From positions 4,272,001 to 4,336,000 of the forward strand of contig OY969810.1 of the NCBI GenBank assembly GCA_963703295.1: a DNA stretch of 64,000 nt, in the 5' to 3' direction. Every line of letters begins with the position of its first letter. Within the stretch, counting starts at the first letter, position 1. Source of the DNA: Bryobacterales bacterium (GTDB taxonomy: Bacteria > Acidobacteriota > Terriglobia > Bryobacterales > Bryobacteraceae). The position numbers were made by a program. This document shows positions 48,001 to 54,000 of this stretch, in pieces.

Positions 48001-51000
48001 CAGCATCAAAGATCCGCTCATTAATTGCCTCGAACTCGGGGGGCAGCAGTAAATTGTCAGTCCGGATCGTCCCTGAGTGCAGCTCTTTTGCGTCAGACTC
48101 GATTGAGGTGTCGTCCAGAGCACTGTCCCAGCGGAACGGGGAGTACCCAGCGAATACCTCGTCAGCCCCTTCGCCTGTCAGTACAACCTTGTAACCGAGA
48201 TCACGAGCCCGCTCGCTGAGTATATGTTTGGCCACCATGTGACCGTGCGTAAATGTCTCGTTATGCATCACCGCCGATCGGAACTTGTCGGCACGTACTC
48301 CGTCATGCACCTCGAAGCAGTAGAACGGTGCCCTTAATCGCTTCGCGACCGCTTCGGCAACCTTGGCCTCATCGTAAAGTGGGTCCTCAAACGAGAGGGT
48401 GAAAGCGCTAATCGGATCGCCCAACACGTGCGAAGCCATGCCCATAATCGCGCCGGAGTCGATTCCGCCGCTCAGAAAACACCCAACAGGGACGTCGGCC
48501 CTCAACCTCAGACGCACCGCCTCGAGCAGCGCTGCGCGCAACTTCTCCACGGCCTCTGCTTCAGTGAGCTGTGGCGAATTCGGCGCCAAGGCAGGATAGT
48601 TGAAGTCCCAATAGCGCACTGTTCTCGTGCTGCCGGGCGTCGCGATCAAACAATGACCCGGCGCGACCTGGTGGATGCCTGCAAACAAGCTGCGGTCGGC
48701 CTGTGCGAAATGGAAAAGTTCCTGATAGACCTGCTCGCGATCCCACGCCGGCTTGACTCCAAGCGCGAACAACGCCTTAATCTCAGAACCGAAGTACAAA
48801 GTTCCATCTACTTCTGCATAGTGCAGTGGTTTGATGCCAAACCGGTCGCGTGCTGCGAGGAGCACTCTGTTACGGTCGTCCCATAGGATGAACGCGAACT
48901 CGCCGCGAAGGTGCTCCAGGCACTGCACGCCAACCTCCTCGTACAAATGCAACGCGATCTCACTGTCGGACGCAGTACGAAACACGTGCCCACGCGCCAT
49001 CAAATCGCGTCGAATCCGGTCATCGTCATAAAACTCCCCGTTGACGGCAATGTGCATGCTTCCGTCCTCGTTTGTAATGGGTTGCGCACCTCCCTGAAGA
49101 TCAACGATACTGAGTCTTCTATGCCCTAGGGCAACGCGCCCGTCAGTTGATACCCATTGGCCTTCGCCATCAGGCCCGCGATGGAGTAACGAGTTCAGCC
49201 CTCTTTTGATCGCGCCAATACGGACTTGGTCATTTCTGGAATAGACAGCCACAATTCCGCACATGAAACCCTCTCAAAGTCGCCCATTCCTTATGCCTTC
49301 ACAAACTCGTGAGACGATACGCGCCTGGCCACGACGACACAATTCAAATTGCGCCGAGTGATGCCCTATGCGACACGCCCAACGGCCCCGACTCACGCAA
49401 ACCGCTCAAACACACCTCAAGCCCGCCTTAGCGGGAACCGTACTTCCTCACGAGCAGTCCGGCGCAAGCCTCGCGGCGTAGCGCCTCTTCCATAGTGAGC
49501 GGAATTGTCACCGCCTGATACTCCCTGTCACCGCTTTCAAATAGTGGCGCGGCAACCAACGGCGGCCGTTCGCTCTTGCCCACAAACATTGCGACCGTCA
49601 TCACCTTCGTGTCCCAATCAATTCTAGTCTCATGAAACACATCTGGCGGTATCGTGTAGTGCTGTCCGGCCTGCACGAAGCGATCCAAACGACGAACAAC
49701 GCCTCCGATTCGTTCCGTTCGTAGGAGTCGCGGGCCCGTACCCGTCCGATTCTGCGCAAGCAATCGTCGGTCGCCGGCCGAATCGTCAATCCAGTCGAAT
49801 GCCACGTCATGGAGTTGTCCGATAATCACAAAGCTCGTCACGGCCACAGAGTGTTGGTGAATTCTCAGACTCGGACTTTGGATATAGCCGTTGTGACCCG
49901 GCCAGCAGTGCAGATAGACGAGACCACGAGAACAGGCCCCCAACGGCCACCTCAGAAACCCAAGCGGATGGGTTGATACCGCCGACACGTTTCCGAGCCT
50001 GGCAATCAAGGCATCACAGAAACGCGGATCAAAACAGCCTTCGACGAGGCCGTCGCCGATTAATTCTAGATTCGAGTCCATAGTGCGACGGGAAAAAATC
50101 CTTTGAAACGATCAGTTGTGGCATCGGGCGATGGAGTAGCGGCTCAATCTATGTTCAAGTCCCGGAGGAGCAGACGAACGGCAGCGTCTTCTAAGCAAGA
50201 AGCCACGTAAGTCCAGAGCTCTACATTCGTCCTCGCCCATGCCCCGTACTTCAATTCAGCCTCCGCATCGTAGAAGTATATCCCTTCCGTTAACAGTGGC
50301 AGCTGTTCTCGAACAATCTTCTCGGCTAGCGCTGAAATCGACATGCCGGTCTCCTTCCGAAACAACGAGGACAGCGCAATCGGCGTGACCGGCAACGCTT
50401 TGAAGAGTGTGTCTGCATCACTTAGGGCGGCTGCCTCAAGGGACACTTCCGGACCCCGATTAGCAGTGTGAGCAGCTTCAATGATGACTTCAATTCGAGC
50501 GGCCACCGTTGGAGGTACTCCAGCCCGACTTAGTAGGTCCTGGCGTAGCTCAAGTCCGGCCGATGGCTCAGATCCGCTCTGGCTGATGTAGTTAAGGTCA
50601 TGAACCAGGGCCGCAGCCGATACGATGCTTATATCACCTCCGTTGCGACCGGCAAATTCAATACCCTTCGCCCGCACAAAACATACGTGGGGCCACCCGT
50701 GAAACGGTATATGGCGGAATCCCCGTTGAGAATACAGAGCCGAAACGAGCGCTTCAAGGTGCTCCAGCGTCGGTCGATCTATTTCGGTGGATCTATTATG
50801 CAATGTCATCTCGAAATTGATTAGCGAATGTCTTGAATTGAATCTCATACTTTCTCAAGACGTAGACGTCGGAGGCTTTCCCAAGCTTAATAAGTATTTC
50901 GCACAGCTCTTCGTCGCTCGTGGATGGCTTCAGCACCAGCGACTCCGCCGCGGTGTCCCTCGATCGGGATAACTGAGTTGAGTAGATCTTGTAGAGAATT

Positions 51001-54000
51001 GACGTCGAGTCGAATCTTACTGTTTTTGGAAATCTCGTACCCGTTTCAGGCGAGTCGCTATATAACGTAAGATACATTGCGTTGTCGAACAGCTCGACGC
51101 GGTCAACTTGCGGCTCATTGAGAAGGTGCACGGTCACGCAACGGCATTTAGCCGACACCAGTCGGGCGGCGACGATTGTCTCGTAGATTGCATCGAGCTG
51201 CTTTTTTTGTACGTCGACGAACACACTCTCCGGCTCCAAGTACGAGATGATGTGGGAGATGCGCGATTCCATTCCACGAGGGATCTGTGGATTCCCAACA
51301 AGAATGTGGACTTCGTCAAACGAGCACCTCTCAAGCCAAAGTCTAGCGACAGTATATCTCCCCGTGACTCCACGGAATACGTAACGGGCACTTTTCCTCA
51401 GGTCATTCATCAAGTCCTGGTTGAAGCGCTTGTCAGGTGTTTTTGCGCCGGGGTAGACTTGCGACGGCAGAAACTCCCGGTGTTCCTGGGCTGACTCGAG
51501 CAGAACGTCTTTAATCTTGTTCTCGATGGCATTTTCAATTGTTTGCCTGATCACAGCTTCAAATTGCAATGATGTGAACAGAGTTTGGAGAAATGCAAGC
51601 AAAGCCGACGCAAACAGCCCGGTTGAAATGGCGATCAAAATGTCTCGCTCATTAGCAGTACGGCCCTGGGCCGCGAGGGCCAAAACGCCCGCGAGCAAGA
51701 CAGCAAATAGGAGGACAACTCCGCTCCTATTGAAATAGAGCGCTTTTGTTACCGTCAGTAATTTGGAGTCGGTCTTCGCCATGGTGATGTGATCAGTGCT
51801 CTCTGGTCGCAGTCTTGGCGGAGTAAATGCTCGGAAGGTGCAGCGGTGCGCGCCAAGGCGCCTTCCAGATTAATTCCTTCAACGTGCGCCGTACCGTAGA
51901 ATCGAGTTCTACTATCGGCACAAAGTTGTCACGAGATTTCGATAACTTCTGGCCATCAGTGTTGAATGTAAGGTTCACACGGCCGGCGAGAGGCACGTGC
52001 CATGACATTAGAGTCGTGATCGCGGACGACGTCTGGAAGGCTTCAACGTGGTCCTGACCGTGCAAGTCAACATCTGCGCGATAGTACTCCCACATGAGCG
52101 CTGATTCTAGCTTGAAAGCAAACAGGCCTTCCGAACTCTCCGCGCTGAATGAGCCGGAATGGCTGCAGCGGAGGCAATTGTACGTGCCATGCCCGTCCCA
52201 AGAAGCTGCGGGCAATTCCGCGGAATACATACACCGGCATACTGCACAGAGGGGCCTGAACAGAACCACTGATGTGGTCTGACATCTAGAAAGTGCGTTA
52301 CGTATGGCGGCTGCCTGCCCGATTAACTTTCGCGCTAAGCCACGAAATCTCTCGTTGGCATATACCGTCGATACCAAGTCAACCTGGTCGATTTGAACTC
52401 CAAAGTGTGCAGCGCAGGTGCTCAGTTCCGTCAAGAGCTGTTCGAGCGCCGAGGTGCCGATCCCTCCCTTGGCGGGCATCGAGGCGGCAAGACTAGCTCC
52501 GGCTCCTGTGGATGACGAGGGCCTCTCTTTATTTCCGGCTCGATCATTTACTCGGATGATCAGACGACTAGAGGACCCGGTTTGCGCGAGAAGATTTCGC
52601 AACGTATCTGCGTACAGGAGAGTCCGCACGATCCCAGCGTGAATGCGCCCGGTCGGGGCAAGTTCGTAACACAGAATGACTTGAGATGGCCGAGGAATCA
52701 AATGAGCCAGTGCTTCCGGATCGGACCAAAAAGGCGGCCTTGGCCGTCCGGGAGGTAAAGCAGTTGTGCCGTTGCGAGGCATCGCGAGAGGTTCGATATC
52801 GTCCAGAGGGTTCGCCATCTGAATGGTATGAAGTCATTCTAGCTGCGATTGACAACCTTGGTTGGATCCAGGAAGCCGACAAGGAAGTAAGCCGCGACAG
52901 CCCAAGAAACCAGGGGAAGCAACAATACGGCGGACTTGAAGTTCTGTTTTTCGCATTCCATGCTCAGGTCCTGAGCCCAGCCTTGTGCAGCAGCTCGTCC
53001 ACCAGCGCCCGGTACTCGTCGATCTTTTCCTTGATGTATTCCCTCCTGCAGGTGTAGGTGATCTTGTGCGCGGAGTAGTTGCCCAGCTCGCGGAATACAT
53101 CGATTGACCTCTTGCTGTTGCGGGAAAGGTTCAGCGTCGTATTGCTCTCCGCGTTATTAACGATCCGTTCGAGCAGGAGGTAATTGCTGTTGGCGTCCTT
53201 GATGGTAGCCGTGATGCCAAGGTGATCATAGGCCATGATGAGCAGCACTTCCTCCAGCCGGCGCATCAGCACCGCGCAGCCGTCGAAGATGTTCTCTTCG
53301 TAGGAGCGGTTGATCTGCTTCGCAAGGCTCTCAATATAGCCGCGCGTTTTTTCGTAAAGTGTTTGCGGCAGGATCGTGCCGTGATCCACGACGTCCTGCG
53401 ATTTTTCGGAAAGCTGAGGCCACAAGCCATCCATCTTTGCGATATAGCTGTGGTGCAACCGGAACATGCCGTGCTTGCTGCCAATGACGGTATCGCGGCT
53501 TTTCTTAAGGTTATTCGTGAGCCGCGAGATGTTAGGCTTCGGGAGGTTGAGGGCATCGAGCCACCTGGCGCAGTCGGTGGCGCTGAATTCAACGACACCT
53601 TCATTTTTCAGGTAATAAAAGGCGAGATGGCAAGCTTTCGGGATCTCGCCGAGCGCAGCAAGCTTGCACTCGCCTACGAATCTGGCGAAGGTCACGCTGC
53701 CGGTGCCTTCGACTCCTGTATAAGCGCCGCGATGCCCTTCTTGCCTTCCTCCAGCAAGTACCACATCTGCGGGTCTTGAGAGGCGTCGCTGTTGACCCAG
53801 CCGCTCTTTCCTTTTTCCTTGCCCAGATCGCGGTGGACATTCGGGGCAAGGATGCTGCCGAACGATTTGAAGTGCTTGTTGAACGTGGCCGCGATGACGG
53901 GACCGGAACACTCATTTCGCCCTGCCTCCAGGCTCAACACGTGAATTAGCCACATCGCCTTCTGAGCGGTGTTCCAATCCTGCTTCGGGAAGCCGTAAGT

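Follow-up and report, generated by a model that had tools for sequence, protein, structure and literature searches.

A four-gene cassette within the 64,000-nucleotide stretch of Bryobacterales DNA analysed here (the window) combines what its sequence identifies as a newly recognised aminoacyl-tRNA synthetase (aaRS) paralog, derived from class I lysyl-tRNA synthetase (LysRS), with a two-helix membrane protein of PLD fold, an HD-type protein and a cupin-like protein. The membrane gene and the cupin gene form a wider module, newly recognised here, which also occurs without the synthetase. Our preferred reading, held tentatively and with somewhat less than even confidence, is that this pair constitutes a ligand-gated anti-phage effector module, to which the LysRS-derived enzyme would add the ligand or a precursor of it.

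The four ORFs of the cassette lie on one strand, the first two 10 bp apart, the middle two overlapping and the last two separated by 62 bp; co-transcription is inferred from this spacing. Their GC content falls within the lowest 1.3% of the genome, and the cassette is evidently rare, mobile and horizontally acquired. As the GC3 of the upstream two-gene pair is 0.70–0.73 versus 0.55–0.61 in the cassette, the pair is probably a neighbouring, separate unit. A promoter and terminator scan gave a result no better than shuffled sequence.

Table 1. Genes of the cassette and its flanks, in window positions.
Feature	Position	Strand	Basis and remarks
Class I LysRS-like adenylating enzyme, anticodon-less, 341 aa	51793..52818	-	Fold/motif comparison; amino-acid pocket replaced
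Membrane protein, predicted effector, 328 aa	50796..51782	-	Helices 20–38 and 47–65; PLD/TrmB-fold domain about 112–285; catalytic His absent
HD-type phosphohydrolase	50144..50848	-	Start 50848 or, more likely, 50809; H..H/HD/D residues, weak scores
Cupin-like metal-binding protein, 217 aa	49428..50081	-	Metal-ligand motif only
Asparagine-synthetase-type amidotransferase (AsnB)	47351..49264	-	163 bp downstream of cassette; membership doubtful
Two-gene pair: uncharacterised protein and HEPN/DUF4145-like protein	52964..54498	-	145 bp upstream; DUF4145 E 0.023, weak

The preliminary description had proposed an anticodon-less class I LysRS core in a genome with its own class II LysRS, and this is borne out: the 341-aa protein matches PF01921 (E 2.3e-16), its predicted model matches class I LysRS 1irx (E 9.1e-15), and the host encodes a normal class II LysRS (604 bits, above cut-off). 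The LysRS-I catalytic fold is present with its HIGH- and KMSKS-type motifs, namely HAGI (60–63), HGQDH (253–257) and KLSKS (291–295), together with a CxxC..CxxC zinc knuckle. An invariant HxGH-type motif, initially claimed for nine homologs, is found in none of the nine covering that region, where the actual motif is H-[AP]-G-[IS]. The C-terminal anticodon-binding domain, present in long LysRS-I matches, is absent, the chain stopping about 45 aa past KLSKS with no PF19269, and the TIGR00467 score is 30 against a cut-off of 148. Within a 31-row clade taken from a quick tree search without bootstrap, the ATP-handling residues are near-invariant (H60, G62, R65 and K294 each in 30/31, D92 and E238 in 31/31, H257 in 29/31), hence the enzyme is evidently under selection for catalysis. 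The residues G27, T29, E41, W218 and Y268 of 1irx, which we take to line the lysine pocket, correspond to E52, A54, T66, F235 and V281 in the 341-aa protein, so that none of the five is kept. When the clade is compared with 30 long LysRS-I rows, E52 is found in 29/31 clade rows where the long enzymes mostly have G (20/30), and the clade mostly has T/A/S for their E (20/30; 1irx E41), mostly V/L/I for their Y (25/30; 1irx Y268) and N/Q/S/G for their D (25/30). Since the lysine pocket is replaced, the aminoacyl (lysyl) or Ap4A product suggested at first is not favoured. Compared with class I LysRS (1irx, PF01921, TIGR00467), the enzyme thus shares the Rossmann catalytic core, the signature motifs and the zinc-knuckle insertion, whereas it lacks the anticodon domain, has a different pocket and is accessory and mobile.

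A word search for relatives returns the ten proteins to which the family had been thought limited, but it comprises 25 clusters at E ≤ 1e-30 and the 31 rows of the clade. Clade members come in part from Logan, ENA and JGI data and include records named as Planctomycetota and Bacteroidota. Occurrence is sporadic: the synthetase was found in none of 400 members of the phylum, the membrane gene in none of 60 relatives and the cupin, searched with a two-row profile, in none of 250 phylum genomes; likewise, no further clade member was found among 261 family-level relatives of the host of L004, one of two distant synthetase loci (L004 and L005). Five scans of viral contigs and searches of phages revealed no relatives, and plasmids none of the four window proteins or of the HEPN-like neighbour. 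One such search gave four weak matches, two of them annotated as LysRS. A fusion of LysRS-like, NDK and HD parts (P0061) sits on a long branch that is not part of the clade and is usable as an analogy only.

The PLD/TrmB fold attributed to the membrane protein is recovered, albeit at a Foldseek E of 9e-4 instead of the 3e-5 given before. The domain aligns with SauUSI, Zucchini, NucT, Nuc and the TrmB sugar-binding domain at Z 9.2–9.9 (rmsd 2.7–3.5, 122–141 aligned residues). R137, T140, R228, E230, D233 and Y241 are invariant in 9/9 membrane proteins. As already remarked in the preliminary description, no canonical HKD motif is present: in a register set by secondary structure, not by structural alignment, HxKxxxxD is represented by V/F/I-x-R-xxxx-D at 226–233, where the HKD His is missing. 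The non-catalytic PLD fold is common to the effector-binding domain of TrmB/TrmBL2 and to DUF5919-type proteins, whereas two hydrophobic helices here take the place of the N-terminal DNA-binding HTH of the TrmB type. Look-alike clusters in the Atlas measure 275–335 aa, one of them with DUF5919 in 15% of its members. When the synthetase was modelled in a complex with two copies of the PLD domain, the median was 0.20 against a mark of 0.32, and the prediction is counted neither for nor against an interaction.

For the HD protein, the expected metal ligands are in place (H54, H83-D84 and D144/D146, aligned to PDB 3djb), although the scores behind the earlier assignment are weak (Pfam E 0.069; 3djb E 8.8e-4). 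The 217-aa protein is presumably a cupin, as judged from its metal-ligand motif, in which H75, H77, H150 and E151 are invariant in 4/4 aligned sequences; a PDB sequence search with it gave no match.

In agreement with what had been noted before, the five closest synthetases and five membrane homologs sit on equal-sized sequence records, and L004 and L005 carry the membrane gene and the synthetase with an IMPase-family gene instead of HD and, at one of them, the cupin. At L004 the membrane gene is frameshifted at a T-run. A phosphatase (HD or IMPase) is consequently present at all three readable synthetase loci, and at one of them there is an adenosine-kinase-like gene (E 2e-41) as well. For eight synthetase/membrane pairs, three read directly at their loci and five paired by equal record size, the identity matrices correlate with a rho of 0.93, a value reached by 0/5040 sampled permutations; co-inheritance alone accounts for this, and a shared pathway does not follow from it.

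At five loci (L067, L068, L076, L077 and L078), the membrane gene and the cupin occur without a synthetase, and a clade member is absent from all four of these genomes that were checked whole. The L078 membrane protein is near the lineage considered here (E 4e-55), yet has no synthetase beside it. Because of these five loci, the synthetase is better seen as an add-on of one lineage than as a universal signal maker, and, given also the four genomes, its product cannot be the sole input of the effector family. The steadiest companion of the membrane gene is the cupin, while the partners that vary from locus to locus are for the most part enzymes of nucleotide or phosphate chemistry, namely HD, IMPase, the adenosine-kinase-like protein and a thymidylate kinase located within the operon at one synthetase-free locus (E 4e-29). 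Neighbours across these loci include a type I HsdR (E 2e-127), a methylase, QueC, a PfkB-deoxyribosyltransferase, and PIN and zeta-like genes, with defence-type neighbours at L068, L077 and L078 as a raw observation. A defence role gains some support from this proximity of membrane gene and cupin to restriction, methylase and toxin-antitoxin genes. The nucleotide-signal defence module initially envisaged is thus partly supported, in its defence or conflict setting with a ligand-gated membrane effector, while the notion of the synthetase as the signal synthase of the system is weakened. The cargo slot of L004 is not a defence hotspot, as among 20 related elements one has a recognised anti-phage system and four a HipA, most of the elements bearing catabolic or metal-resistance genes (72/127 cargo clusters scanned). 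PADLOC 2.0 (2023 library) gave no match for the core genes of the window, L004, L005, L067, L068, L077 and L078, nor, consistent with the earlier negative result, for any of eight window proteins (8/8). A description of the cassette was not found in the literature searched, which lay mostly outside subscription journals.

The proposed mechanism starts from an enzyme that, by its sequence, has kept the residues for ATP handling, is devoid of the anticodon domain and carries a pocket of a new kind. It may adenylate a carboxylate other than lysine and transfer it to a nucleotide or another phosphorylated acceptor. The PLD-fold domain would then bind the phosphate of the product via its conserved Arg residues and gate membrane damage, and the HD or IMPase phosphatase together with the cupin would convert or clear the molecule, which might either open the effector or hold it shut. 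A more specific version, in which the anti-phage family takes interchangeable nucleotide enzymes for its inputs and the rebuilt aaRS core of one lineage makes an acyl-nucleotide immune messenger, is rather doubtful.

Alternatively, membrane protein and cupin alone could be a defence core sensing a host or phage metabolite, with the synthetase as a second arm acylating a macromolecule (tRNA, like GluQ-RS, or protein, like EpmA/PoxA, e.g. the effector or a phage target). The five loci with the core but no synthetase fit this, as does the zinc-knuckle insertion kept in close homologs, which in this aaRS subclass contacts tRNA acceptor stems; several distant members, however, have lost the zinc ligands, and Rfam matches and whole tRNA genes are absent from the window, L004 and L005. 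Protein-modifying aaRS paralogs have precedent (PMC9437257), but the phosphatase at 3/3 synthetase loci suits a small phosphorylated product better, and we consider this alternative unlikely.

Still less probable is a small-molecule biosynthetic cassette, with the synthetase as an MshC-like amide ligase, phosphatase, cupin and AsnB as tailoring enzymes and the membrane protein as sensor or exporter. AsnB does follow on the same strand with a similarly low GC3 of 0.63, inside a stretch without long match in 40 relatives, and a ligase (MshC) plus an inositol-type phosphatase is what mycothiol synthesis employs. Of the possible biosynthetic neighbours, the phosphatase is present at 3/3 synthetase loci and AsnB at 1/3. 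AsnB is, however, missing at L004 and L005, and the core turns up elsewhere as a pair of genes beside restriction and toxin-antitoxin genes with no biosynthetic genes. Moreover, a two-helix PLD-fold protein is not known to act as an exporter.

Production of Ap4A-type dinucleoside polyphosphates by the enzyme, with hydrolysis by the HD protein, is very unlikely: the IMPase family, which acts on phosphomonoesters, replaces HD at 2/3 loci, the new pattern of conservation in the pocket points to a specific co-substrate, and Ap4A is already supplied by host synthetases. The HD fold is shared with YqeK. YqeK is reported to be an Ap4N hydrolase (PMC13627108) and aaRSs are named as sources of Ap4A (PMC10148737), which speaks for this route. 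That the enzyme is simply a housekeeping LysRS in decay, or a truncated one, among neighbours that are there by chance, as the great rarity of the family and the one frameshifted partner copy might suggest, is largely refuted and scarcely credible in view of the steady length of about 300–340 aa across the 31-row clade, its own conserved residues, the conserved partner and the full LysRS kept by both hosts checked.

A membrane effector with a ligand domain adjoining a nucleotide-using enzyme is familiar from the TM effectors of CBASS and Pycsar, from Hailong and from His-ADPR Thoeris. Panoptes (PMC12657218) places such an enzyme beside a two-helix effector in the membrane that bears a domain for ligand binding, as is proposed for the cassette. 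No protein family is common to the cassette and these systems (no PADLOC match), and the cassette differs in its PLD-fold sensor and constant cupin. Type III CRISPR SAM-AMP signalling, as described in PMC12255297, comprises an ATP-conjugate maker, a CorA membrane effector and interchangeable degraders (NrN or lyase). The cassette, with its putative signal, shares this layout, whereas it has no Cas10 or CRISPR, and synthase, effector fold and degraders are all different. In architecture only, it resembles second-messenger immune systems, its membrane effector having a domain of ligand type and being linked to a degrading enzyme; the synthase is not obligatory with the effector, as it would be in such immunity, being absent at five loci. 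Reuse of aaRS catalytic cores outside translation is exemplified in PMC9437257 by GluQ-RS (YadB), MshC (appearing among its references), PoxA/EpmA and cyclodipeptide synthases, from which the present enzyme differs in being class I LysRS-derived and tied to a membrane PLD-fold protein; the LysRS row of that review contains no class I LysRS-derived paralog.

If the preferred reading of a ligand-gated effector module is true, an aaRS core would be a new class of immune signal-making enzyme, the inactive PLD domain a new sensor fold and the messenger chemistry new to bacterial immunity. With an acyl-nucleotide messenger, a translation enzyme would have taken over the making of an immune signal. 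Even with an accessory synthetase, the membrane-PLD and cupin proteins represent a candidate defence family that is small and can be tested directly. Their module occurs in Pseudomonadota and in an actinomycete.

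All four open reading frames of the cassette are present on the minus strand, in agreement with the preliminary description, where the first two lie 10 bp apart, the second and third overlap and the last two are separated by 62 bp, a spacing that suggests co-transcription. With 54.1% GC, the cassette falls into the lowest 1.3% of same-size windows of the genome, and its GC3 is 0.55–0.61 versus 0.73–0.75 in two flanking genes; by these measures it is evidently foreign to the host. No long match from 40 relatives to about 46.8–54.8 kb of the window was among the matches listed (all but the 79 weakest). 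The cassette is real as a feature; no description of it was found in the literature, and it is apparently undescribed.

The proposed class I LysRS catalytic core is corroborated by a PF01921 match of synthetase residues 53–307 (E 2.3e-16) and a model (mean pLDDT 84.7) best matching 1irx (E 9.1e-15). The C-terminus lies about 45 residues past KLSKS and, therefore, the anticodon domain is absent. As claimed, the host encodes a normal class II LysRS (604 bits); the host of L004, one of two distant synthetase loci, carries a full class I LysRS. The family exceeds the 10 proteins initially reported: searching 1.84 billion representatives with a profile yielded 25 clusters at E ≤ 1e-30. A quick tree was built from 35 candidates (mostly 270–340 aa) together with 30 long proteins that served as canonical LysRS-I (picked by length, six of them checked with Pfam); in it, 31 candidates form one clade (SH-aLRT 94), whose named members belong to Planctomycetota, Bacteroidota and Pseudomonadota, plus one Nitrososphaera bin. 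Additional separate clusters of LysRS-I-like cores (318–366 aa) occur in the Atlas. P0061, a hit outside the clade, is an 807-aa fusion of a LysRS-I-like core, a nucleoside-diphosphate kinase and an HD domain.

Counting the 31 clade rows and excluding the other four candidates, D92 and E238 are invariant, H60, G62, R65 and K294 are each present in 30 and H257 in 29. The first motif reads H-[AP]-G-[IS] and is not of the HxGH type previously assigned. Judged from alignment of the synthetase to 1irx, the clade differs from long LysRS-I at the amino-acid pocket: E52 is found in 29 rows, where long LysRS mostly has G, and, in 1irx numbering, E41 is replaced by T/A/S, D by N, W218 by F and Y268 by V/L/I. 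In 1irx, E41 and Y268 are presumably the residues holding lysine. The accessible part of a review on aaRS paralogs names LysU, PoxA and LysX and no class I LysRS paralog (PMC9437257).

The membrane protein has two hydrophobic helices and a PLD-like domain that can be superposed with PLD nucleases and with the sugar-binding domain of TrmB (Z 9.2–9.9). Hence, the claimed TrmBL2/PLD fold stands, but not its E value of 3e-5, for which Foldseek gives 9e-4 against TrmBL2. The HKD position reads V/F-x-R-xxxx-D, and R137, T140, R228, E230, D233 and Y241 are unchanged in 9/9 proteins, which would fit a non-catalytic phosphate-binding pocket. The reported pairing with the synthetase holds, five homologs being matched to the five closest synthetases by equal-sized contigs, and the genes being neighbours in L004 and L005, the second distant locus. 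Identities of both proteins correlate with a rho of 0.93 over 8 pairs (as high in 0/5040 sampled permutations), a value that joint inheritance alone would yield. In L004, the membrane gene has a frameshift at a T run, reflecting either assembly error or phase variation.

Instead of the HD-type protein of the window, L004 and L005 encode an IMPase-family protein, and L004 adds an adenosine-kinase-like gene (PF04008, E 2e-41) together with the cupin on the divergent strand; integrase and IS elements adjoin L005, all as described before except for the kinase and the strand of the cupin. A 216-aa gene in operon with the L004 kinase and cupin has no match in Pfam, PADLOC or PHROG. Taken together, HD, IMPase, adenosine kinase and, upstream in L067, thymidylate kinase as variable partners suggest that the molecule handled is phosphorylated and probably a nucleotide.

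Membrane gene plus cupin as a wider module is new, and the feature is broader than first seen. The window cupin matches phrog_4784 (E 3.8e-5), a family found in 3/351 Pseudomonadota genomes; in two of these three, a two-helix gene lies immediately upstream of the cupin, and such proteins align to the membrane family (261 columns, probability 93%, E 2.8e-7). A four-row cupin profile was positive in 6/361 genomes, the hits being the two seeds, L077 and L078 (both with membrane gene), and two distant cupins that sit in prophage-like regions and lack the membrane gene. Distant cupin relatives of the latter type (L069, L079 and L080, two of them in prophage-like regions) may be nucleotide enzymes of phages or serve counter-defence. 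A Nonomuraea locus found by membrane-protein search carries the cupin too. From both searches, therefore, five membrane-cupin loci without synthetase result, a count biased because four were found via the cupin; among loci found otherwise, the cupin is present in 3/4. A clade synthetase was detected in 0/4 membrane-cupin genomes searched whole. The L078 membrane protein is close to the lineage of the window (E 4e-55).

We tentatively prefer a reading in which membrane protein and cupin would constitute a ligand-gated conflict module, to which one lineage added a synthetase-derived adenylating enzyme and a phosphatase that may make and clear the ligand or its precursor; ligand binding might then lead to membrane damage. 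Folds, residues, gene orders and distribution are direct observations, and substrate, product, binding, membrane damage and defence are inferred. In layout, the proposed module resembles Panoptes (PMC12657218) and SAM-AMP/CorA signalling, in which a conjugate of ATP acts jointly with a membrane effector and exchangeable degrading enzymes (PMC12255297); no protein family is shared with either. The synthase would be expected to be obligatory in such a second-messenger immune system, and the five loci without synthetase do not agree with this. The earlier proposal is partly supported: the synthetase as its signal synthase is weakened by these five loci, and a defence module with a ligand-gated membrane effector gains from restriction/toxin-antitoxin neighbours and nucleotide-type partners. 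L077 is convergent with a type I restriction gene, L068 adjoins methylase, QueC, glycosylase and PfkB-deoxyribosyltransferase genes, L078 is next to PIN, DUF2442 and zeta-like genes, and L067 has an HTH gene of antitoxin-like type upstream. Counting against defence, PADLOC matches no core gene, as already noted; the L004 slot after traG-copG, tested as a possible defence hotspot, holds mostly catabolic/metal-resistance cargo in 20 related elements (PD-Lambda-5 in 1/20, HipA in 4/20; 72/127 cargo clusters covered); and a neighbouring two-gene pair, with GC3 unlike the cassette, matches HEPN-like/DUF4145 only at E 0.023. Domains of thymidylate-synthase, kinase and phosphatase type are among those that DefensePredictor reports in defence (PMC13092281); its main text contains neither 'cupin' nor 'phospholipase D', a negative on which its supplements could bear. 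The boldest reading, an anti-phage family based on PLD-fold effector and cupin, with an aaRS core rebuilt for an acyl-nucleotide messenger, is doubtful.

Acylation of tRNA or protein by the synthetase as a second arm is rather improbable. Small-molecule biosynthesis with AsnB, encoded downstream, is unlikely, as this gene occurs in the window only and not in L004 or L005. Ap4A production by the synthetase is very unlikely, and decay of a LysRS hardly deserves consideration. Besides, the two-gene pair next to the cassette has no plasmid relatives, tblastn at E ≤ 1e-4 finds the polyphosphate kinase fragment at the island edge nowhere else in the genome, and the unannotated 254-aa gene, with >50 related copies genome-wide and several per relative, possibly represents a mobile or expanded family.

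Positions of cassette genes and further features (counted within the window or the respective locus)
Locus	Position	Strand	Feature
Window	51793–52818	−	synthetase
Window	50796–51782	−	membrane protein
Window	50144–50848	−	HD-type protein
Window	49428–50081	−	cupin-like protein
Window	47351–49264	−	AsnB (asparagine-synthetase type)
Window	47104–47307		polyphosphate kinase fragment, 67 codons (PF17941, E 3e-8)
Window	52964–54498		two-gene pair
Window	54890–55654		254-aa gene
Window	21957–32386		TIR_2-domain gene (E 7e-11) and, immediately after it, a compact block of phage-like genes (terminase, portal, capsid, serine recombinase)
Window	40034–40629		PIN toxin-antitoxin-like pair
Window	61458–63175		IS element (UPF0236 + DUF6788)
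L004	5054–5704		216-aa gene
L004	6824–6834		T run (nine T)
L005	2519–2560		partial tRNA-like stretch ahead of integrase
L005	12487–13155		222-aa gene, RxxxxH HEPN-like motif spotted by eye
L068	8019–14700		island: 752-aa, methylase, 8-oxoG glycosylase-like, QueC and PfkB-deoxyribosyltransferase genes
L079	6849–7547		distant cupin relative
L080	6728–7318		distant cupin relative
L069	1276–2028		distant cupin relative
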